This document shows, one piece after another, positions 2,346 to 58,960 of a stretch of 64,000 nt of DNA. The DNA lies in the IMG/VR virus record IMGVR_UViG_3300006841_000093, positions 32,001 through 96,000 of that record; one strand, given 5' to 3'. The notes under the pieces were generated by a model. That model had not been told where the DNA came from and ran no database searches. It worked only from the letters and a program-made list of their open reading frames with translations. Each line of letters opens with the position of its first letter. Position 1 is the first letter of the stretch. The stretch is from a virus. The position numbers and the translations under genes are program-made.

Positions 2346-2422
2346 TGGCTGCGGGGGTAGGATTCGAACCTACAGATTTTCTGCCAACAACAGATCGCGT
2401 TTGCCGGTTTCGCCACCCCGCA
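2346..2422 (-). tRNA. Atypical tRNA-Asn(GTT)-like gene
   Basis: Minus strand folds as: acceptor TGCGGGG/CCCCGCA, G73, CCA; D-arm GCG..CGC; anticodon arm ATCTG-TTGTTGG-CAGAA; T-arm GTAGG-TTCGAAT-CCTAC. The loop is UU-GUU-GG rather than CU-GUU-AA. Confidence 0.6.
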
Positions 2423-5841: not shown

Positions 5842-5926
5842 GGGGAGGCTGAGCACGTGGTGAGCCCAACGGACTGTAAATCCGCCGGATATTCCTGTGA
5901 AGGTTCGACTCCTTCTCTCCCCACCA
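5842..5926 (+). tRNA. tRNA-Tyr(GTA)
   Basis: GGGGAGG/TCTCCCC acceptor stem, CT-GTA-AA loop, long variable arm, GAAGG-TTCGACT-CCTTC T-arm, A73, encoded CCA. Confidence 0.92.
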
Positions 5927-31083: not shown

Positions 31084-32134
31084 TTATTTAGATAATTTAG
31101 TAAAAGTGACAGGTAATGAATTCGCAACAAAAGTTTCAGATGGGGTTGAAGCTGGTGATGTTACTGGTCATGTAGATACAGGAAGTTATATTTTAAATGC
31201 ATTAGTTTCAGGAGACATTTATGGAGGAATCCCATCAAACAAAATTACAGCTCTGGCAGGAGAAACTGCAACGGGTAAAACATTTTTCGCTCTTGGTATG
31301 GTCAAACAGTTTCTTTCAGATAATCCTAGCGGCGGCGTTTTGTATTTTGAGTCTGAGTCTGCACTCACTAAAGACATGATTGAGAGTAGGGGAATCGATT
31401 CAAAACGAATGATAATTCTCCCCGTAACTACTATACAAGAATTTACTCACCAAGCAGTTAAAATAGTAGAAAATCATACAGAAGATAAACCGATAATGAT
31501 GTGTCTCGATTCACTTGGAATGTTATCAACAACAAAAGAAGTTGGTGATATTACAGAAGGTAAGGAGACTAAAGATATGACACGGGCACAACTTGTTAAA
31601 GGGTGTTTCAGGGTCTTGACATTGAAATTAGGTAAAGCAGGAATTCCATTATTAGTAACCAATCATACATACAAACAAGTTGGAACTATGTTTCCACAAG
31701 ATGTGATGGGTGGTGGTAGTGGACTACAGTATGCAGCATCTACAATTATTTTCCTTTCCAAGAGAAAAGAAAAAGAGGGCACAGATGTTGTTGGTAATGT
31801 AATACATTGTAAGAATTTTAAATCTAGATTAACGAAAGAAAATAAAAAGGTAGATGTTCTCTTGAGGTATGATCAAGGTTTGAATAGATATTATGGGTTA
31901 CTTGAATTAGCAGAAGAAGCGGGGATTTTTAAAAAGGTTTCTACAAGATATGAGATGCCGGATGGTGGTAAAATTTTTGGAAAGGCAATACTGAATGAGC
32001 CTGAAAAATATTTTACAAAGGAAATTCTTGATAAATTAAATGATTATGCAAAAACAGTATTTCTCTATGGTGGAAAAAGTGAAGAAAGAAACGAAACTGA
32101 GGATGAGACAGTCCCAGTCAACGAAACCAACTAA
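31076..32134 (+). CDS. uvsX: RecA-like recombinase UvsX
   Basis: [22 protein letters not shown] and MGGGSG. Confidence 0.95.
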
Positions 32135-34252: not shown

Positions 34253-34260
34253 TATAAATA
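34253..34260 (+). promoter_or_regulatory. T4-type late promoter
   Basis: TATAAATA, 33 nt upstream of the 34294 ATG (RBS AGGAG). Confidence 0.65.
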
Positions 34261-34293: not shown

Positions 34294-36063
34294 ATGAAAC
34301 GTTTTAAACAAATTACTGCAGATTTATATGATGCCTCTAAATCAGAGAAACTTGCTCATGATTTAGCACTTATTACCGAAAAGGGTGAAGATATATGTGC
34401 AGTAGACATAACTCAGTTAAGGTCTAAAGTTTTACGTGACAGACACGCAAAAATGTGTAAGCCTGAGCCAAAACATTGGAGTAATACAAAGAAAAAACTT
34501 AAAGATACACCTATACAACGAGCAGCAAAACGTGCCGGAATGCAAACAAAAGCACGAAAAGGATTATATAATCAAAAACAACATGATTTTAAAGATTTTT
34601 TAATAGAAGATATTCTCAATGAAGGCCGGAAAGAAATCCAAGCTCAAATAATCTCCGCTGGGAAAGCCGCAGGATTAGAAAAACATTCTAATCTCGCAAG
34701 AGTTTACAATCCTAAAGGAATGAAAAATGGTGATTTTGTTAAACTGATTAAACAAACATTTGAAGTGGATGATGTTGTAGTTCTTGCTCCCAAAGATCAA
34801 GGTAATCCTAGTTCTTCATTTTATACTTTCCTATGGAACGAAAATCAAATAACTCTTGCAGGAGCAGTTAAAGGTAGAGGTAGTAGACAAACAGAAGAAC
34901 AAGAAATATCTTGGCTTTTAGTATTAAGTGGTTATCATCAAGGTTATGGTGAATTAGTAGATGATGAATTTTTAGAAAAATTGTCGGGTGAAGCAAAAGT
35001 ATATTCAAAAATCACTAATTCAAAGGGAAAATTCTTAGGAGAAAGTGACGCACAAGGTTTAGTTTTTTGGTTATCTAATAATAATGATTGGTTACAATCT
35101 CATAGAAAACAGGCAAATAAGTTCATTAAAAGTGTTTCATCAGCACCATTAAGATATGTTAAAGATTATTCTAAACTTGATATAGTTCAACATGCAAAAG
35201 CACTTTTTCCGAAAGCTGTCCCTGGACAAATATTTGATAAAGATAAATGGAATCCAGCAGATGTTTGGCTCTATTATGAAGATTTAACAGAACAAGCAAG
35301 TTTAGCAGACTTAAATAACTATCTCTTAGCTTCTATAGAAGGTGGTAAAGGTATCATAGGTATATCTTTAAAATTAGGTGGAGGTAACGTAAATACAATA
35401 AATGCCAGAAAACGTCCAGTTTATGTTGTTGATGATTTTGATATGAAATTTGGTGATTTATTTGCCCAAAATGTTAATACAGAATATGGTGGAATGGGAA
35501 TGGAAGGCTATTCTGTTATGTATAGACTGTTTAGCCCAAAAATTGGAGAACTTATTAGGGGAGAAGCACAACAGAAAGCGGCTCTAGCGGCACAAGGGAA
35601 AGTTTATTTAAAATATATTGATCATTTAACGGGAGGGGCGCAAGCATCAAAAGCTGTTGCAGGTGTAGCAAAGAAAATTGTAGAGAAAGATAAAAAAACA
35701 GGAGTTTATAAATTTACAACAGATGGTGCAAGGACATTTAATAAAGTCAAGAGAGCATGGCCACTTGTAAGAGATAATAATATAATTGAGTGGGCATCAA
35801 CTGCAAATCCTGCCAATTATGATAGACTTGTAGATTCTAAAACATTTTTAGAATATGTTAATGAATATGCAATAAAAAAGAAGTTGAGAGAAAGTGAAAT
35901 GCAAGTAAGAGTTATGGCACGATTTCAAACTATTATGTTAGGAGCGGTGTTTTCTTCTATAAAACGAAAAAGTGTAGACAAATTACATGAAATTGTATTA
36001 GGTATGTTACTATTTGCTAAATCAGAATCAGTTTGGTCTGCACCACACATGAAGGCACAATAA
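34294..36063 (+). CDS. Large hypothetical protein, possible PD-(D/E)xK nuclease domain
   Basis: EQE...DKWNPADVW...IGISLK pattern; capsid-targeting-like N-terminus MKRFKQI. Confidence 0.5.
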   Translation: MKRFKQITADLYDASKSEKLAHDLALITEKGEDICAVDITQLRSKVLRDRHAKMCKPEPKHWSNTKKKLKDTPIQRAAKRAGMQTKARKGLYNQKQHDFKDFLIEDILNEGRKEIQAQIISAGKAAGLEKHSNLARVYNPKGMKNGDFVKLIKQTFEVDDVVVLAPKDQGNPSSSFYTFLWNENQITLAGAVKGRGSRQTEEQEISWLLVLSGYHQGYGELVDDEFLEKLSGEAKVYSKITNSKGKFLGESDAQGLVFWLSNNNDWLQSHRKQANKFIKSVSSAPLRYVKDYSKLDIVQHAKALFPKAVPGQIFDKDKWNPADVWLYYEDLTEQASLADLNNYLLASIEGGKGIIGISLKLGGGNVNTINARKRPVYVVDDFDMKFGDLFAQNVNTEYGGMGMEGYSVMYRLFSPKIGELIRGEAQQKAALAAQGKVYLKYIDHLTGGAQASKAVAGVAKKIVEKDKKTGVYKFTTDGARTFNKVKRAWPLVRDNNIIEWASTANPANYDRLVDSKTFLEYVNEYAIKKKLRESEMQVRVMARFQTIMLGAVFSSIKRKSVDKLHEIVLGMLLFAKSESVWSAPHMKAQ

Positions 36064-37280
36064 TGTTCGCATTTGCTTCATTTTTAACTGAACAAAAGAA
36101 TCTCCACATGGAACACCTTGAAGATGAGGTGTTAAATGGTGGAGTAGAAGGAACTAGGGGAGCAATAAATTTCCTTCAAGGATTGAGGGATATGTTAGCA
36201 GGAAGTTCAGCTTCTTCTGTAGATGTTACAGTAAAATGGGATGGAGCACCCGCAGTGTTTGCAGGAATTAATCCTGAGAATGATCAATTCTTTGTAGGAA
36301 CAAAAGGTGTATTCGCTAAGAATGCAAAGATAAATTATACTGATACAGATATAGATAATAATCATTCAGGAGGATTAGCAGAGAAACTTAAAGTTGCACT
36401 TAAAGAATTATCCAAAGTAAACATACAAGGTGTTTTACAGGGTGATATGATGTATACTCATAATGATATTACAAAAGAAACGATTGATGGTGAACCTTAT
36501 ATTACTTTTCAACCAAATACTATCGTTTATGCAATACCAGTGAAATCAAAGTTGGCGGCTAAAATCCTGTCCTCTAATATGGGAATCGTATGGCACACCA
36601 CTTATAGTGGAGATACGATGGAGGACATGACCGCCTCCTTTGGTGTTAGTTCGGGGGCGTTTAGTGAAAGTAGTTCAGTATGGCAAGCAGATGCATCATT
36701 CAAAGATCATTCTGGAAGTGCCACTATGACAAGTAAAGAGACTGGTGATGTTACTAAAATATTAAGTCAAGCTGGTAAACTGTTTAGAGAAATAGACTCT
36801 AATACTCTGGCTATGGTAGCGGGAGATCCTACACCAAAAGAATTGATAAAGACGTATAACAATAAAATGGTGAGAGAAGGACAGAAGATTTCAAATCCTA
36901 AAAGACATACTGCAGGAGTGATTAAATTTGTATATGATAAGTTGAAAGCAGATGTAGATAAGGTAAAAAGAGAAAATACGAAAAAAGAGAAACAACGTAA
37001 GATGGATTTATATGTTGACTTTTTCAGAAAACATTCTTCAGATTTAGTCAAGATATTTGCATTACAAAATTTACTTATTGATGCAAAATTAATAATTCTT
37101 AGAAAATTAGAACAAGTTAAATCTATCAAAACGTTAATGAAAACATCTACAGGATTTAAAGTTACTTCTCCAGAGGGGTTCGTTGCTATAGACAAACTCA
37201 AAGGTGGTGCAGTCAAGTTGGTTGATCGAATGGAATTTTCAATGCAAAACTTCAACGCAGCAAAGAATTGGGATAAATGA
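36063..37280 (+). CDS. Conserved T4-like phage protein with covalent nucleotidyltransferase (ligase/capping) motifs
   Basis: KNLHMEHLED, KWDG (motif I), LQGD, FQPN, EGFV and VKLV; start MFAFASFLTE. Confidence 0.55.
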   Translation: MFAFASFLTEQKNLHMEHLEDEVLNGGVEGTRGAINFLQGLRDMLAGSSASSVDVTVKWDGAPAVFAGINPENDQFFVGTKGVFAKNAKINYTDTDIDNNHSGGLAEKLKVALKELSKVNIQGVLQGDMMYTHNDITKETIDGEPYITFQPNTIVYAIPVKSKLAAKILSSNMGIVWHTTYSGDTMEDMTASFGVSSGAFSESSSVWQADASFKDHSGSATMTSKETGDVTKILSQAGKLFREIDSNTLAMVAGDPTPKELIKTYNNKMVREGQKISNPKRHTAGVIKFVYDKLKADVDKVKRENTKKEKQRKMDLYVDFFRKHSSDLVKIFALQNLLIDAKLIILRKLEQVKSIKTLMKTSTGFKVTSPEGFVAIDKLKGGAVKLVDRMEFSMQNFNAAKNWDK

Positions 37281-37489
37281 AAACATTTTCAAAGTATCTA
37301 GAAGAAAATTCCAAGTATATTGTTTCCAAGAACCCAAGCGACAAGAAATGGTATGTAATGGGTCATGTGGGAAGAAACAAATGGATGCCGGTTTCTAGTG
37401 GATTTAAAAACAAAGCCCAAGCTCAGAAGTGGGCAAAGAGTCAAGATAAGGTGGATGACGCGGCTCGCGGAGAAATAGGTGGTGTATAA
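37277..37489 (+). CDS. Small hypothetical protein with CTS-like leader
   Basis: Starts MKTFSKYLEE. Confidence 0.65.
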   Translation: MKTFSKYLEENSKYIVSKNPSDKKWYVMGHVGRNKWMPVSSGFKNKAQAQKWAKSQDKVDDAARGEIGGV

Positions 37490-37661
37490 GATGAAAAAAG
37501 TTATAATACCACATATAGACCACGGTGTTGATATTATTGGTGATGAATGGGAAGATGAAGAAGATGAATCTGAGATGTATGAACAACGAGAAGATCCAGA
37601 TCATCCATACTGTACAAATTGGCCAGTAAATAAAAAAAAGGAAAAACATGGAAACATTTAA
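37479..37661 (+). CDS. Small acidic hypothetical protein
   Basis: Packed operon. Confidence 0.45.
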   Translation: MVYKMKKVIIPHIDHGVDIIGDEWEDEEDESEMYEQREDPDHPYCTNWPVNKKKEKHGNI

Positions 37662-37926
37662 AGAATTTTTTGGTAAAAAGGCTGTAATCGATAAAGATCA
37701 AGAAGAATTAGAAAAACTTGGTTTGAAAGCTGCTGGTAGAGGTGGTTGGTCTAAAAAAGAACAAGATCGATATAATGATCTTTGGATGAAGATGCACAAA
37801 AAGGGTCAAACTCCATTAATGACACCACCAAGTGTATATGATGATGATTCGTGGGGAACTAAAACTACAAAACTTCATAAGAAGTTAAGATTAACTAAAA
37901 AAGATCATTCAAGTGTATTAGCATGA
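37648..37926 (+). CDS. Small hypothetical protein with CTS-like leader
   Basis: Starts METFKEFFGK. Confidence 0.6.
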   Translation: METFKEFFGKKAVIDKDQEELEKLGLKAAGRGGWSKKEQDRYNDLWMKMHKKGQTPLMTPPSVYDDDSWGTKTTKLHKKLRLTKKDHSSVLA

Positions 37927-38951
37927 GTACAGCTGTATTTGCTTTTGGGAGATTTAATCCTCCTACTATCGGACATGAAAAGTTGATAAACGCAGTAATT
38001 GCTACTAATCAACGTGAGGGTGGAACTGCCTACATTTATGGAAGTCATTCACAAGATAGTAGAAAAAATCCCCTTTCACATTCAGAAAAAATGGGATATT
38101 TACAAAAAATGTTCCCACGAATTAAAAAGTCGATACAAACTAAAGCAAAAGAACGAAATGTACTACAAATCGCACATACATTAAATGAAAAATATGATAA
38201 ATTAATATTAGTAGTGGGTAGTGATAGAGTCGATGACTTTACCTCTTTACTAAATAGTTACAATGGGATAAAGTCTAAACATGGATTTTATGAATATAAA
38301 GAAATAAAAGTATATAGTGCAGGTGAAAGAGACCCAGATGCAGATGGTGCTTCTGGAATGTCAGCATCTAAGATGAGATCAGCCGCAACAAAGGGTGATT
38401 TTGAGTCGTTTATATCAGGCGCATCAAGTGAATTAACTATAAAAGAAAAGAGAAATCTAATGAATGATGTACGAAAAGGATTGAAATTAGATTCATTACG
38501 TGAAGCAATGAAACGCCGAAGAGGTTATGAGAAACCTGTTATAGTTGAACATAAAGATAATATTGAAACAAAAGAACTATCTTGGCAAGGTTATGATACT
38601 GTAAATTTATCTACTTGTGTAGAGGCGTTTGAATTATTTGATGAAATAGTTAATAGTGTCGGTGATGGAACGTTTACTGCCCCAGAAAAGGGGTATCTTA
38701 AAGAAGCACTAATGTTGACAGATAAATGTCTTTGTATTTCACAAGTACCAGAAGAAGAAATAACAGAAGAAGATGAAGTGAATTACATAAAAAGTTCAGA
38801 GAAAGCAATAAAACTTTTGGAGACTGTTAAAAAACGAACAGGCATACCATTTGAATATTCGTTTTTGAATGATCTTCAAGTAAAAGTTGCACCTAATGCA
38901 CAACCACGAAAAACATTTACACAATTTTCAGGAGAAATGTATGGCCTCTGA
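37923..38951 (+). CDS. HIGH-superfamily nucleotidyltransferase (cytidylyl/NMN adenylyltransferase-like) with C-terminal extension
   Basis: FGRFNPPTIGHEKL, VVGSDR, SAGERD and SASKMR. Confidence 0.75.
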   Translation: MSTAVFAFGRFNPPTIGHEKLINAVIATNQREGGTAYIYGSHSQDSRKNPLSHSEKMGYLQKMFPRIKKSIQTKAKERNVLQIAHTLNEKYDKLILVVGSDRVDDFTSLLNSYNGIKSKHGFYEYKEIKVYSAGERDPDADGASGMSASKMRSAATKGDFESFISGASSELTIKEKRNLMNDVRKGLKLDSLREAMKRRRGYEKPVIVEHKDNIETKELSWQGYDTVNLSTCVEAFELFDEIVNSVGDGTFTAPEKGYLKEALMLTDKCLCISQVPEEEITEEDEVNYIKSSEKAIKLLETVKKRTGIPFEYSFLNDLQVKVAPNAQPRKTFTQFSGEMYGL

Positions 38952-50553: not shown

Positions 50554-50916
50554 ATGATCTCATTTACTGAAAAAGCCGCTAGTAAAGTATTAAGTATTAT
50601 GGATGAACAAAAAGTAGATGATGACACAAGAGTACGAGTTGGTGTTAAGGGTGGTGGTTGTTCGGGATTTACTTATACAGTAGATTTCGATAGTAGGAAG
50701 AATAGGTTTGATTTAGAATTTGAATCTTTTGGACTTAATGTATTAGTAGATAAAAAAAGTCATTTATATATTAAAGGTACAGAAATTGATTGGTCTAATG
50801 AATTAAATGATCGTGGATTAAAATTTAATAATCCATCTGCAAAAGGTAGTTGTGGATGTAGAACATCATTTATGCACGAAGGAGTAAATGGAGCAAAAGA
50901 GCCAAGTTGGTTGTGA
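50554..50916 (+). CDS. iscA: A-type Fe-S carrier (IscA/HesB family)
   Basis: VKGGGCSGFTY and CGC motifs. Confidence 0.9.
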   Translation: MISFTEKAASKVLSIMDEQKVDDDTRVRVGVKGGGCSGFTYTVDFDSRKNRFDLEFESFGLNVLVDKKSHLYIKGTEIDWSNELNDRGLKFNNPSAKGSCGCRTSFMHEGVNGAKEPSWL

Positions 50917-51298
50917 ACTTAAAATAACAGAAAAAGCCGCTGTAGAATTTAAACAAATGTGTATTGGTGAAGATAAACATTGGGCGGATTCATATTTAAG
51001 GATAGGAGCAAATTCAGGCGGATGTTCTGGTTGGAAGTATAGTTTAGATTATGAAGATACAGTAGATGATTCTACTGACTTGATTTTTGAACAATATGGT
51101 GTTAAACTAGTAGTTGATGAATACATACTTAACGATATAATTGGTGATGTAGAAGTAGATTATAAAATAGGAAATTTAGTAGAACAAGGATTTATATTTA
51201 AAAGACTTAAATATGAACATGTCTGCGGGTGTGGAGAAAGCTTCACACCAATAAAGGATATTCCTGCAGATGGTAAGCAGAATTTAGGTTGGAAATAA
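50888..51298 (+). CDS. Second A-type Fe-S carrier (IscA/HesB family)
   Basis: SGGCSGWKYSL and CGCGESF. Confidence 0.85.
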   Translation: MEQKSQVGCELKITEKAAVEFKQMCIGEDKHWADSYLRIGANSGGCSGWKYSLDYEDTVDDSTDLIFEQYGVKLVVDEYILNDIIGDVEVDYKIGNLVEQGFIFKRLKYEHVCGCGESFTPIKDIPADGKQNLGWK

Positions 51299-51299
51299 A

Positions 51300-51692
51300 A
51301 TGGCATATTCAGATAAGGTATTAAAGCATTATGAACGACCAAGTAATGTTGGTAGTTTGGATAGTGGGAGTAATTCTGTGGGCACTGGCCTTGTGGGTGC
51401 TCCAGAGTGTGGTGATGTAATGAAACTCCAAATCCAAGTAGACGATAAAGGAACAATAGTTGATGCCAAGTTTAAAACATTTGGTTGTGGGTCGGCTATT
51501 GCTGCGAGTTCATTAGCAACAGAGTGGATTAAAGATAAACCACTTGATGAAGCAGAAACAATTAAAAACACAGAGATAGTTAATGAACTATCTTTACCTC
51601 CAGTTAAAATACATTGTAGTGTTCTTGCTGAAGATGCAATTAAAGCTGCAATCAAAGACTATAAGAGTAAAAATGGCTATGAGAACGTTTAA
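51300..51692 (+). CDS. iscU: Fe-S scaffold IscU
   Basis: MAYSDKVLKHY, GAPECGDVMKLQI, FGCGSAIA and LPPVKIHCSVLAEDA. Confidence 0.95.
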   Translation: MAYSDKVLKHYERPSNVGSLDSGSNSVGTGLVGAPECGDVMKLQIQVDDKGTIVDAKFKTFGCGSAIAASSLATEWIKDKPLDEAETIKNTEIVNELSLPPVKIHCSVLAEDAIKAAIKDYKSKNGYENV

Positions 51693-52317: not shown

Positions 52318-52833
52318 ATGGATAAAAAATTTAAACATTATATAGTAGAATTCGATACACCACAAATTTATTGTGATATGGATGGAGTGTTAGCAGATTT
52401 TGAAAAGGGAGTAAAAAATATGATTGGGGGCAAATTTTCTGATGCTAGATGGGCAGAATTACCAGATGATTTTTTCTTACAATTAGAACCAATGAAAGAC
52501 GCACAAAAATTGTGGGATTTTATTGGAAAATATGATCCACTTATTTTAACTGCCGTTCCAAGATCCTCTAGAGGACCTATTGCGGCAAGGGCAACAGAAG
52601 ATAAAACTAGATTTATGAAAAGGTGGTTTGGTGTTTCTCCCAATAGGATGTATCCTGTCATGAGAGCGGATAAAATGAGATTCGCAAAAGATGGTAGAGA
52701 TGGAAGACCCAATTTACTCATTGATGATCACTCTAAGAATATTGCACAATTTAGGGCCGCTGGGGGTATAGGAGTACATCATCTAAGTGCAAGTGGAAGT
52801 ATTAAACAACTGAAAGACATTGGTTATAAGTGA
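52318..52833 (+). CDS. HAD-family 5'(3')-deoxyribonucleotidase-like phosphatase
   Basis: YCDMDGVLADF, ILTA and LLIDDHSKN. Confidence 0.85.
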   Translation: MDKKFKHYIVEFDTPQIYCDMDGVLADFEKGVKNMIGGKFSDARWAELPDDFFLQLEPMKDAQKLWDFIGKYDPLILTAVPRSSRGPIAARATEDKTRFMKRWFGVSPNRMYPVMRADKMRFAKDGRDGRPNLLIDDHSKNIAQFRAAGGIGVHHLSASGSIKQLKDIGYK

Positions 52834-55590: not shown

Positions 55591-56184
55591 ATGGGCCACG
55601 TTACCCGCTTTTCTAAACCAGAATACGGAACTGGAAGAAAAAAACATTTCGAAGATGTTCCAGAAAATAGAACAGCAGTAGATAACATTCTGCGAGTCAA
55701 TCATGGTAATCAAATGAGACTAGGATTGATGGCAGATGCAAAAGCTAATATTATGATTACTGTTGCATCGATAGTATTTTCAATAACTATTGCAAATTTA
55801 GATAATGAAGTAATGCGTTATACTCTTCTAACATTTGCCGTTGGTAGTTTTTTCTCTTTGTTATTTGCTATATTTGCAATTATACCAAATACAGACTATC
55901 CTAGAGTAAAATGGTCTAAGGAAATTGATAGAGATTCACCTATATTCAATCCGTTGTTCTTTGGTCACTTTGCACATTTGGATATAGATGAATATAAAGA
56001 AGATTACGCAGAAATTTTAAGTACTGATGACAGTATATATGATTCAATGGCAGGAGATATCTATGGTCAAGGAAAGATACTTGCATTAAAGAAATATAAG
56101 TATTTGAAATGGTCATATAACTGTTTTCTCACAGGAATGTCATGTGCAATTATAACATTTGTAGTACAACATGTAATTTTATAA
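55591..56184 (+). CDS. Pycsar-type membrane effector domain protein (PycTM/DUF5706-like)
   Basis: ADAKANIMIT-TM1, TM2-AIFAIIP, PLFFGHF, DIYGQGKILALKKYKYLKWSY-TM3. Confidence 0.75.
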   Translation: MGHVTRFSKPEYGTGRKKHFEDVPENRTAVDNILRVNHGNQMRLGLMADAKANIMITVASIVFSITIANLDNEVMRYTLLTFAVGSFFSLLFAIFAIIPNTDYPRVKWSKEIDRDSPIFNPLFFGHFAHLDIDEYKEDYAEILSTDDSIYDSMAGDIYGQGKILALKKYKYLKWSYNCFLTGMSCAIITFVVQHVIL

Positions 56185-57347: not shown

Positions 57348-58220
57348 ATGGCAGAAGAAATGATGGATTTCGGATTTAGTGCCGTAACCGCAGATGAATA
57401 TGAAAAAGACCAGACAGATGGTGAAAATACTGGACTTGGAGGGGCTGCCAGTCCTGAAGCACTTGCTGCATTAGATTATAAGATTGAACAAATTATAGGT
57501 CATTTATCAACTAAAGCAGATGAATCAAGTAGTAGTGATTTTGGATTTACTCAAGAGGATAAAGATAAACAAGAGGGAAAATTACAAGATATTGAAGAAA
57601 AAATTGATAAGATTCTTTCATTAGAATTAGATGAAGAACGAGCACAAACTACAGCAGATATTCTTTCACAATTAAATGATGCAACTGGAGATTCTAGAAC
57701 AGCTTCAGCAGAAGCAAAGAAGTCAGTAGGAAAACAAGATGAGATCATGAAGTTCCTACAAGATATGTCACCAAAGGTTGATAAGATTCTTAAACTAGAG
57801 AGTCTTGAAAGTCTTCTAGAAGGTACTTCAGGTAAGTTAGATAGTTTATCAGAAGTCGCAGGAGCAGTACAAACTGTTTCGGCTGATCCTCCCGATTTAT
57901 CACCAATCGTAGAAAAATTAGAATTCATGGATAAAGATATCCAAAAGATTCTAAAGATGGAACAGTTAGAAGCTGTTACTGCACTACAAAAATCCTCTCA
58001 TGATATGACATCATTAGCAAAAGAACTCGAAGAAAGAAAAAAGGATATAGATATTAAATATAAAGCTCGTATGTTAGCAGTAGAAAAGTTAATTCTTCCT
58101 TTGATAGAGAACCTTCAAAAAGATGGAAATACAAAAGAATATATTAGATGGCCAAATAGAATACCTATCTTAGAAGCTCAAAAACAAAAAATTATACAAG
58201 TTACAAGGTCTGAACTATGA
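57348..58220 (+). CDS. Coiled-coil protein with internal repeats
   Basis: Three K(I/V)xKIL(S/K)(L/M)E-like repeats; C-terminal LPLIENL..KEYIRWPNR. Confidence 0.65.
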   Translation: MAEEMMDFGFSAVTADEYEKDQTDGENTGLGGAASPEALAALDYKIEQIIGHLSTKADESSSSDFGFTQEDKDKQEGKLQDIEEKIDKILSLELDEERAQTTADILSQLNDATGDSRTASAEAKKSVGKQDEIMKFLQDMSPKVDKILKLESLESLLEGTSGKLDSLSEVAGAVQTVSADPPDLSPIVEKLEFMDKDIQKILKMEQLEAVTALQKSSHDMTSLAKELEERKKDIDIKYKARMLAVEKLILPLIENLQKDGNTKEYIRWPNRIPILEAQKQKIIQVTRSEL

Positions 58221-58960
58221 GATTTGGAGATTTAAAACAAGAACTTTTAGAAGGTGTATATGATCCTGGCATTTTTAAAGCATTCTTCTTAGCAGGAGGT
58301 GCGGGAAGTGGTAAGTCATATTCAGCAGAAAAAGCAACTGGATCAGCTGCAGGAAAATTTTCTTGGGATTCTTCTATGGAGAAGATTACTCCTGGTAAGG
58401 TCGGTCCTTTTGGATTGAAAGTAGTCAACTCTGATGAACAATTAGAATATGGTTTGATGAAAGCAAAGATGTCTTCTAATATGAAGGCATATACTGATGA
58501 TGATACTACAAGAAAAGAACTGATTAGAGCAAAAGCCAAAAAGAAGACAGCAAAAAAAGAACAGTTATGGGTCAATGGAAGATTAGGATTAATCATTGAT
58601 GGTACTGCTAAAGATATAACTAAACTTAGTATAAAGAAAAAAGCACTAGAAGATGTTGGTTATGATACTCACATGATATTTGTTAATACTTCCCTTGATG
58701 TTGCAATTCAACAAAATAATTCAAGAAAAAGAAAACTTCCTGATGAAATTATTAGACAAACATGGAATGAAGTTCAAGGAATTAAAAATGAACTTGCTAA
58801 TCTATTTGCTGGAGGATTTGTTGAAATTGTTAATAATAGAGCAGGAGAAGATGTATTTCGAAAATCATTTGTCGAAGTAGGTAAACTTATAAAACGCCCA
58901 CCAACTAAACCTGCCGCAAAAATGTGGATCGCTCAAGAACTAGAACAGAAAAAGAGGTAA
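58217..58960 (+). CDS. P-loop kinase (zeta-toxin/AAA_33-like)
   Basis: GGAGSGKS, VNSD, IIDGT and RKRKLP. Confidence 0.75.
   Translation: MRFGDLKQELLEGVYDPGIFKAFFLAGGAGSGKSYSAEKATGSAAGKFSWDSSMEKITPGKVGPFGLKVVNSDEQLEYGLMKAKMSSNMKAYTDDDTTRKELIRAKAKKKTAKKEQLWVNGRLGLIIDGTAKDITKLSIKKKALEDVGYDTHMIFVNTSLDVAIQQNNSRKRKLPDEIIRQTWNEVQGIKNELANLFAGGFVEIVNNRAGEDVFRKSFVEVGKLIKRPPTKPAAKMWIAQELEQKKR

Follow-up and report, generated by a model that had tools for sequence, protein, structure and literature searches.

The question raised by this locus is what function is performed by a conserved phage gene whose family, DUF6267, has been left without an assigned one. The gene occupies positions 36063-37280 of a 64,000-nucleotide stretch of viral DNA (positions 32,001 to 96,000 of IMG/VR virus record IMGVR_UViG_3300006841_000093), the whole of which is referred to here as the window. 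The evidence is in our judgement best explained if the gene encodes a late-made, head-packaged covalent nucleotidyltransferase of the RNA ligase type that acts with a HIGH-type nucleotidyltransferase, and often with a kinase and a HAD phosphatase, in healing and sealing ends; we give this reading an even chance of being correct. It is built on family membership, motifs, predicted fold, leader, promoter, fusions and synteny, from which we infer catalysis, packaging of the window protein and its substrate.

The window originates from a 134.5-kilobase (kb) virus record that is estimated to be complete. Its G+C content is low, nearly all genes lie on the plus strand, and a family B DNA polymerase, UvsX, a gp41-type helicase, a primase and a gp21-type prohead protease are encoded in the genome. 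The closest named phage is the OM43 phage Melnitz (Kyanoviridae), with 52% identity for the DUF6267 protein. On account of the low G+C content, the gene content including the protease, and Melnitz as nearest named phage, the window phage is a marine T4-like myophage. T4-like cyanophages and their relatives infecting SAR11 and OM43 are generally regarded as among the most abundant marine viruses.

DUF6267 family and motifs

The protein matches Pfam family DUF6267 (PF19782) over the full length of the profile (positions 1-376 of 376, E 1.4e-110) as well as PHROG 455 (phrog_455, E 1.7e-105), for which no function is assigned. A search of 1.8 billion representative proteins resulted in 2,667 family clusters, counted at 50% identity, at E 0.001 or better. 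Homologues were found in roughly 460 phage records, almost all of them cyanomyophages, the others being phages of Methylophilales, Pelagibacter, Vibrio, Pseudoalteromonas and Stenotrophomonas. The homologue in P-HM1 is annotated as T4-GC 71, a cluster that was found in 16 out of 16 cyanomyophage genomes in a 2010 comparison, as was the neighbouring 'cytidyltransferase' T4-GC190 (Sullivan et al.). Searches of the searchable literature for DUF6267 and PF19782 turned up no paper describing the family, a search of a protein language-model atlas returned unnamed viral clusters only, and no homologue was present in the plasmid collection searched.

Translation was started at the ATG at 36063, which overlaps the upstream stop codon (TAATG) and coincides with the start of relatives; a TTG at 36033 was rejected as the start. 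Within the resulting 405 residues, TVKWDGAP (residues 56-63), VLQGDMMY (124-131), ITFQPN (147-152), PEGFVA (370-375) and AVKLVDR (383-389) follow one another, corresponding to motifs I, III, IIIa, IV and V (Table 1). Conservation was evaluated in an alignment of 62 long-form relatives (A1) and in one of 54 mixed long and short relatives (A3), the two groups sharing about 25% identity. In both, the invariant or near-invariant columns within the motifs are K58, D60 and G61; Q126, G127 and D128; F149, P151 and N152; E371 and G372; and K385 and R389. K58 is the predicted nucleotidyl-accepting lysine. Outside the motifs H15, H18, E20, H178, N267 and K342 are conserved in both alignments. The first three belong to an H-x-x-H-x-E-D motif at the very start of the predicted mature protein, immediately ahead of which the leaderless short forms begin, and this motif could bind a metal. 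The five motifs of the DUF6267 protein are real and not a chance pattern, because they make up the most conserved columns of the family, are placed on strands in the structural model described below, and accompany a fold that matches ligases and capping enzymes.

Predicted fold

An AlphaFold model of the window protein was obtained at a predicted local distance difference test (pLDDT) score of 89.8. Each motif is located on a beta-strand or at the end of one, as in ligases. An inserted helical domain separates motif IIIa from motif IV by about 220 residues; this domain holds the invariant N267 and K342 and is smaller in the cyanophage forms. Only about 16 residues with a single helix follow motif V and there is therefore no OB domain; neither motif VI nor a match to PF01068 or to an OB domain was found. 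As most of the helical insert is removed in the natural short form, S-CREM2 gp87 (295 residues) was modelled as well, at a pLDDT of 92.1.

Both models were compared exhaustively to 48,161 representative chains of the PDB. Apart from helical bundles matching the insert, the top matches to the long-form model were ligases only, namely NgrRnl (5cot, Z 7.6 over 183 residues at 4.1 Å), Trl1 (6n0t, Z 7.3), REL1 (Z 7.2), T4 Rnl2 (Z 7.0) and T4 Rnl1 (Z 6.9), with DNA ligases at Z 5.6-6.1. For the short-form model the top 23 matches were all ligases (Z 4.7-6.9; root-mean-square deviation 4.0-5.3 Å; 152-190 residues), headed by Trl1 (Z 6.9, 189 residues), NgrRnl and T4 Rnl2 (both Z 6.8) and T4 Rnl1 (Z 6.4), with DNA ligases at Z 4.7-5.5; no more than 18 chains reached Z >= 5. 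RNA ligases accordingly outranked DNA ligases in the structural comparisons of both models.

A preliminary description of this DNA had listed the same five motifs in the same order at 36063-37280, which the translation and the family alignments confirm, and had proposed an unrecognised RNA-ligase-like enzyme. This proposal is upheld in that both AlphaFold models have a ligase/capping-like fold, the nearest structures are RNA ligases, and the family is a DUF without assigned function. A Foldseek comparison to Rnl1 and Rnl2 had been called for: against the PDB neither model has a match at E 0.001 or better, while the list for the short-form model consists nearly entirely of ligases and capping enzymes (best E 0.02), such lists being informative through their composition only, and both T4 ligases are recovered by the structural comparison above. 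The family has remained a DUF because profile comparisons (to Pfam, to PDB sequences and to one T4 Rnl2 alignment) linked it to no known ligase family. Each fold score is weak by itself. What the lists contain, the alignment of the entire domain (about 170-200 residues) and the positions of the motifs nevertheless agree, and we therefore consider the assignment of DUF6267 to the ligase/capping, i.e. covalent nucleotidyltransferase, fold to be solid for a modelled structure.

Could the likeness be a coincidence, a functionally unrelated family happening to combine short motifs with a beta-sheet arrangement that is common? Every Z score stays below 8, a range that according to the comparison tool is often reached by models without relatives, and no profile-level similarity to ligases was seen. 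Two independently built models nevertheless list almost wholly ligases and capping enzymes with about 170-200 residues aligned, and the five motifs fall on the expected strands at the most conserved positions of the family. We regard coincidence as the least credible of the explanations considered here.

Late promoter, operon and capsid-targeting leader

A T4-type late promoter box, TATAAATA, is located in the 49-nucleotide gap preceding the gene at 34294-36063, which is coupled translationally to the DUF6267 gene through the TAATG stop/start overlap. In relatives the gene upstream of DUF6267 varies. Among 80 related IMG/VR loci, of which about 70 were testable, 28 have the box no more than 100 nucleotides upstream of either DUF6267 or the gene preceding it, compared to about 1.4 expected from the overall density of the box.

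The protein starts with a ten-residue leader, MFAFASFLTE. In the capsid-targeting sequence of T4, positions 4 and 7 serve targeting and positions 8 and 10 serve processing (PMC9026906). Compared to the T4 sequence MKTYQEFIAE, the window protein has F4, F7, L8 and E10 at these positions. Two genes of T4 do start with the T4 sequence, which fits IPII and IPIII, the propeptides of which are identical (PMC9026906). Most unfused long-form relatives start with M-x-x-F-x-x-(F/Y)-(L/I)-x-E, followed after a few residues by N-x-H-L-E-H. A strict version of the leader pattern was matched by 41 of 151 long-form relatives and by none of 120 short forms, 120 T4 Rnl2 proteins, 45 gp41 helicases or 20 UvsX proteins. 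Where DUF6267 is part of a fusion, its domain is directly preceded by an (L/I)-x-E site. A gp21-type prohead protease is encoded in the same genome (PF03420, E 1.2e-36, C1:9519-9962), and by analogy to T4 its cleavage site is predicted to follow Glu 10. Based on the leader, the late promoter and the protease, packaging of the protein into the head and its injection are therefore predicted.

The leader type recurs in the window. It is found in unrelated genes at 37277 (MKTFSKYLEE), 49274 (MKTFSTYIFE), 49657 (MKSFRGYLQE) and 51679 (MRTFKSFLTE, an S-adenosylmethionine-dependent methyltransferase), and in a shifted version at the start of the HAD protein at 52318 (MDKKFKHYIVE). The protein encoded at 34294-36063 begins with the leader-like MKRFKQITAD, which has Asp at position 10, and contains a second site, L-I-T-E, at residues 26-29. 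In T4, a leader with Asp at position 10 allows targeting and blocks cleavage (PMC9026906). The leaders on several genes suggest, from their sequence, a larger set of head-packaged cargo.

A packaged DUF6267 protein might also have kept the ligase fold without being catalytic any longer, and act as a nucleic-acid-binding internal head protein that protects, for example, DNA ends. The internal proteins of T4 are mostly non-enzymatic cargo (PMC9026906), and motifs III and V of DUF6267 are off the usual consensus. K58, D60, D128, F149, E371, K385 and R389 are, however, invariant or nearly so across forms that share only about 25% identity, which is typical of an active site, and this explanation appears to us highly unlikely.

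HIGH-type nucleotidyltransferase partner

Downstream of DUF6267 a HIGH-type nucleotidyltransferase is encoded (Table 1). The association of the two is reflected in phrog_455 itself, a 764-position profile that covers both proteins. Fusions of the two, with the transferase at one end of DUF6267 or the other, were found in 7 representative proteins. In P-HM1 the transferase gene is directly downstream of DUF6267 and overlaps it, and in phage DLP6 a 722-residue transferase is encoded two genes downstream. The coordinates of T4-GC71 adjoin those of T4-GC190 in most of the 16 cyanomyophages (Sullivan et al.). Across the 80 loci, the transferase is found 0-2 genes downstream of DUF6267 in about half. 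In S-CREM2, no DUF6267 was found among the transferase neighbours gp155, gp156 and gp160, and the homologue, gp87, is encoded elsewhere in the genome. Judged by gene order and fusions, the HIGH-type nucleotidyltransferase is the constant partner of DUF6267. Its invariant motifs are FGRxNPPTxGH and SGERDPDA...MSASKxR, and it matches models of NMNAT, NadR and NadD weakly, those of NMNAT far below the cut-offs. A complex predicted for DUF6267 (residues 11-405) with the transferase domain scored 0.00, which bears neither for nor against binding.

The partner is enlarged in some related phages (L055:3148-6792, L018:8612-12019, L051, L074 and L078), where it spans 900-1,214 residues and additionally contains Zeta/AAA_33 kinase, DUF5824, DUF6321 and weak HNH_3 segments. 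Such enlarged transferases may be polyproteins that are cut at (L/I)-x-E sites. In S-CREM2, the virion-detected gp156 (L002:3513-4226), encoded two genes downstream of the transferase, has a weak match to a Pol-beta-type nucleotidyltransferase (PF01909, E 3.4e-4).

The HIGH-type partner, the capsid-targeting leader and the late promoter had not been part of the preliminary description; together they point to delivery in the virion.

Kinase and HAD phosphatase

The preliminary description had further suggested that DUF6267 could form, with the HAD phosphatase at 52318 and the P-loop kinase at 58217, a heal-and-seal repair kit against defences that cut tRNA or rRNA. In locus L086 relatives of both are encoded directly downstream of DUF6267, three genes in a row, the kinase relative (41% identity to the 58217 protein) following it immediately. 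Relatives of the HAD protein are also found near DUF6267 in L073, L051 and L059. Two kinds of kinase fusion were found, one to DUF6267 (protein P0008) and one to the HIGH transferase (L018, L025 and L030). As regards the set of enzymes, the repair-kit idea has comparative support because relatives of the kinase and the HAD protein adjoin DUF6267 elsewhere and because of the P0008 fusion. None of the four proteins (ligase-like protein, HIGH transferase, kinase and HAD protein) had a PADLOC hit.

A possible replacement for the T4 DNA ligase

DUF6267 might alternatively stand in for T4 gp30 as the replicative DNA ligase 'missing' from marine T4-like phages, and seal Okazaki fragments as well as nicks arising in recombination. 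Cyanomyoviruses have no recognisable gp30 or RNase H, and undetected distant homologues have been left as a possibility (PMC2984593, PMC1079782). T4-GC71 is present in all of the 16 cyanomyophage genomes compared. In profile searches, the genome of the window, the record of which is estimated complete, had no match to PF01068, PF01653, PF09414 or PF09511. With T4 as the positive control, PF01068 was also not detected in Melnitz, S-CREM2 or P-HM1, nor in two partial IMG/VR contigs, which carry less weight as they are 75% and 54% complete. The gene order UvsX, gp41 helicase, variable gene and DUF6267 is conserved, and the cyanophage forms are leaderless.

The soil phage DLP6, on the other hand, encodes a canonical PF01068 (gp30-type) ligase in addition to a leader-bearing DUF6267 (E 1.4e-119) near the transferase, which argues against a plain replacement of gp30. 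DUF6267 moreover lacks the OB domain and motif VI that are both present in known ATP-dependent DNA ligases, the fold searches with either model place RNA ligases higher than DNA ligases, and a late promoter and a capsid-targeting leader are unsuited to an enzyme of the replisome. We consider replacement of gp30 to be unlikely, if somewhat less so for the cyanophage forms, which lack the leader.

Proposed mechanism and observations against it

In the reading that we prefer, that of a head-packaged RNA-ligase-type enzyme, K58 in motif I would take AMP from ATP and pass it to a 5'-phosphate end, upon which the strand would be sealed. The protein would be made late and loaded into the prohead via the leader ending in L-T-E, the leader would be trimmed by the gp21-type protease, and the mature protein would be injected with the DNA. 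The HIGH-type nucleotidyltransferase would act alongside, joined in many relatives by the Zeta/AAA_33-like kinase and the HAD phosphatase. A kit delivered by the virion in this manner would heal and seal broken polynucleotide ends, of RNA more likely than of DNA. More tentatively, marine and some soil T4-like phages may inject a head-loaded kit, consisting of AMP-charged ligase, HIGH transferase, kinase and phosphatase, that mends cut RNA or nicked phage DNA before phage genes are expressed; this wider version strikes us as rather doubtful.

Several observations weigh against the preferred reading. Motif V is K-x-x-x-R instead of the usual K-x-K, and in motif III Asp takes the place of the Glu found in most ligases. 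The fold scores are modest (every Z below 8, best Foldseek E 0.02). A Pfam scan of the protein at 36063-37280 gave DUF6267 only and no ligase family, searches of PDB sequences, whether started from the protein or from the family profile, yielded no more than chance hits (isocitrate dehydrogenase and ribosomal protein eS8), and hhalign of the family to an alignment of T4 Rnl2, itself of low diversity, gave a probability of 0.2%. We know of no heal-and-seal RNA repair pathway in which a HIGH-type nucleotidyltransferase has a role. An association with the kinase and with the HAD protein, supported in relatives, is less apparent in the window, where their genes lie 15-21 kb from DUF6267, and PDB sequence searches with the two proteins gave no link to T4 Pnkp. 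The HAD protein resembles in sequence a 5'(3')-deoxyribonucleotidase (NT5C) rather than T4 Pnkp, and the kit could therefore act on free nucleotides. Finally, S-CREM2 gp87 was not detected in virions (PMC10665884), and T4-GC71 is not among the virion proteins listed for S-SM1, S-PM2 and Syn9 (PMC3037559).

With respect to the last point, the partner transferase of S-CREM2, gp154, was detected in virions (PMC10665884) and starts with MKNFSSFLTE, whereas gp87 has no leader. The transferase T4-GC190 was likewise detected in virions of S-SM1, with 25 peptide counts (PMC3037559, supplementary Table 8). Among the DUF6267 proteins covered by proteomes, the leader was checked for S-CREM2 only. The published proteomes are consistent with a rule by which leader-bearing proteins are packaged and leaderless ones are not.

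In a further alternative, DUF6267 would transfer a nucleotide to a target other than a polynucleotide nick. It might act on free nucleotides or cofactors jointly with the NMNAT-like transferase, the kinase and the nucleotidase-like HAD protein, for instance by joining AMP to nicotinamide mononucleotide (NMN) to give nicotinamide adenine dinucleotide (NAD+) and thus counter NAD-depleting defences, or else it might cap or tag 5' ends. The partners do resemble small-molecule enzymes, the transferase resembling NMNAT, NadR and NadD weakly, the HAD protein NT5C, and the kinase being Zeta/AAA_33-like. A HIGH transferase with a P-loop kinase is also the arrangement of NadR and of coenzyme A synthase, and NAD+ is AMP joined to NMN, the type of product formed in the second step of ligation. 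Capping enzymes and snurportin were found among the fold matches of the short form. To our knowledge, however, every characterised member of this fold acts on 5' ends of nucleic acids. The matches to NMNAT models are all far below cut-offs, an NMNAT-like enzyme alone would make NAD+ and render a second route redundant, and no NMN or NAD pocket is seen in the sequence. A cofactor or capping role is in our estimate improbable, to about the same degree as replacement of gp30.

Should the wider version, a ready-charged kit injected from the head, be correct, DUF6267 would be the first virion-delivered polynucleotide ligase, and a function would be provided for a gene common to all 16 cyanomyophage genomes compared in 2010 and for its 'cytidyltransferase' neighbour. 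A ligase-type DUF6267 is a candidate for filling a gap noted since 2005, namely that no recognisable DNA ligase, rnlA or pseT is present in these phages. A head-packaged module would explain the recurrence of the partner transferase in virion proteomes, and would suggest that phages can carry repair enzymes as head cargo. The substrate range of DUF6267, if active, would be of interest for use as a reagent.

Features of the window

The features of the locus are collected in Table 1. Elsewhere in the window, a 197-residue protein encoded at 55591-56184 (+) matches the Pycsar effector family PycTM (Pfam E 2.4e-23; PADLOC PycTM E 1.6e-17). This gene, of a bacterial defence effector family and here found in a phage, is flanked by genes for a solute-binding-like protein and a class 3 lipase. 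At 50554-51692 (+), three small genes have N-termini that, from their translations only, are like those of iron-sulfur cluster assembly proteins, two being IscA/HesB-like (GGGCSG) and one IscU-like (APECGD). A tRNA-Asn (GTT) is encoded at 2346-2422 (-) and a tRNA-Tyr (GTA) at 5842-5926 (+).

Table 1. Features of the DUF6267 locus and of the candidate partner genes, in window coordinates.
Feature	Position	Strand	Basis
T4-type late promoter box TATAAATA, 34 nucleotides upstream of the first gene of the operon	34253..34260	+	Sequence match
Upstream operon gene, 589 residues, phrog_1462, no Pfam family	34294..36063	+	N-terminus MKRFKQITAD
DUF6267 gene, ligase-like (predicted) covalent nucleotidyltransferase, 405 residues	36063..37280	+	Pfam PF19782, AlphaFold, fold matches
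Ten-codon leader MFAFASFLTE	36063..36092	+	Likeness to T4 capsid-targeting sequence; gp21-type protease in genome
HMEHLED (H-x-x-H-x-E-D motif)	36105..36125	+	H15, H18, E20 invariant or nearly so
Motif I, TVKWDGAP	36228..36251	+	K58, D60 invariant in long and short forms; K58 ends strand 53-58
Motif III, VLQGDMMY (Q126, G127, D128)	36432..36455	+	Nearly invariant; strand 124-132
Motif IIIa, ITFQPN (F149, P151, N152)	36501..36518	+	F149 invariant in A1, N152 in A3; strand 144-149
Helical domain between motifs IIIa and IV (residues 224-350, about 125 residues)	36732..37112	+	Predicted secondary structure, alignments
Motif IV, PEGFVA (E371, G372)	37170..37187	+	Alignments; strand 372-377
Motif V, AVKLVDR (K385, R389)	37209..37229	+	Both invariant; strand 382-386, then one helix
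Small open reading frame, 70 residues, leader MKTFSKYLEE, start overlaps DUF6267 stop (ATGA)	37277..37489	+	Translation
Small open reading frame, 92 residues (METFKEFFGK...), upstream of and overlapping the nucleotidyltransferase gene	37648..37926	+	Kept in the closest loci, L010 and L011
HIGH-type (cytidylyltransferase-like, weakly NMNAT-like) nucleotidyltransferase	37923..38951	+	PF01467, phrog_3041/395
HAD-superfamily phosphatase, candidate end-healing partner, start MDKKFKHYIVE	52318..52833	+	Weak NT5C match
Zeta/AAA_33-like P-loop kinase, candidate end-healing partner	58217..58960	+	Profile match

Comparison to known systems

With the head-packaged proteins of T4 (IPI, IPII, IPIII and Alt) the DUF6267 protein has in common a ten-residue leader with aromatic residues at positions 4 and 7, I/L at position 8 and E at position 10, predicted late expression and a gp21-type protease. 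The T4 cargo consists of small basic proteins and one ADP-ribosyltransferase, whereas here the cargo would be a predicted ligase-type enzyme.

The heal-and-seal systems of T4 (Pnkp with Rnl1) and of bacteria (Pnkp/Hen1) resemble the set of kinase, phosphatase and ligase that recurs around DUF6267. In contrast to these systems, the kinase and HAD protein associated with DUF6267 are not recognisably Pnkp, a HIGH transferase comes in addition, the window has the genes dispersed, and delivery in the virion is predicted instead of early expression.

T4 gp30 and other ATP-dependent DNA ligases share the nucleotidyltransferase fold and rank lower in the comparisons; unlike them DUF6267 has no OB domain, motif VI or PF01068 match. 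The closest likeness is to the ATP-dependent RNA ligases Trl1 (LIG domain of the fungal tRNA ligase), NgrRnl/Rnl5 of Naegleria, T4 Rnl2, T4 Rnl1 and the trypanosome REL1, which are the best fold matches (Z 6.4-7.6) and in which motifs I, III, IIIa, IV and V occur in the same order on beta-strands, likewise without an OB domain. Association with a P-loop kinase is found on both sides, Trl1 being arranged as LIG-KIN-CPD and T4 Rnl1 working with Pnkp, similar to the kinase-DUF6267 fusion P0008. DUF6267 differs from these ligases in having no detectable sequence-profile similarity to them, an additional N-terminal H-x-x-H-x-E-D motif, K-L-V-D-R as motif V, a capsid-targeting-like leader, predicted late expression and a HIGH-type partner. 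As to Rnl2-type ligases, the DUF6267 protein has no PF09414 or PF18043 match, no match to an Rnl2 profile and no C-terminal domain. Compared to the Rnl1/Trl1 type, the helical domain precedes motif IV as an insert and is not C-terminal to motif V, though fold similarity is still highest to this group. As modelled, DUF6267 would thus extend the ligase superfamily by a new layout, with an insert ahead of motif IV and a His/Glu motif at the N-terminus but no OB domain.

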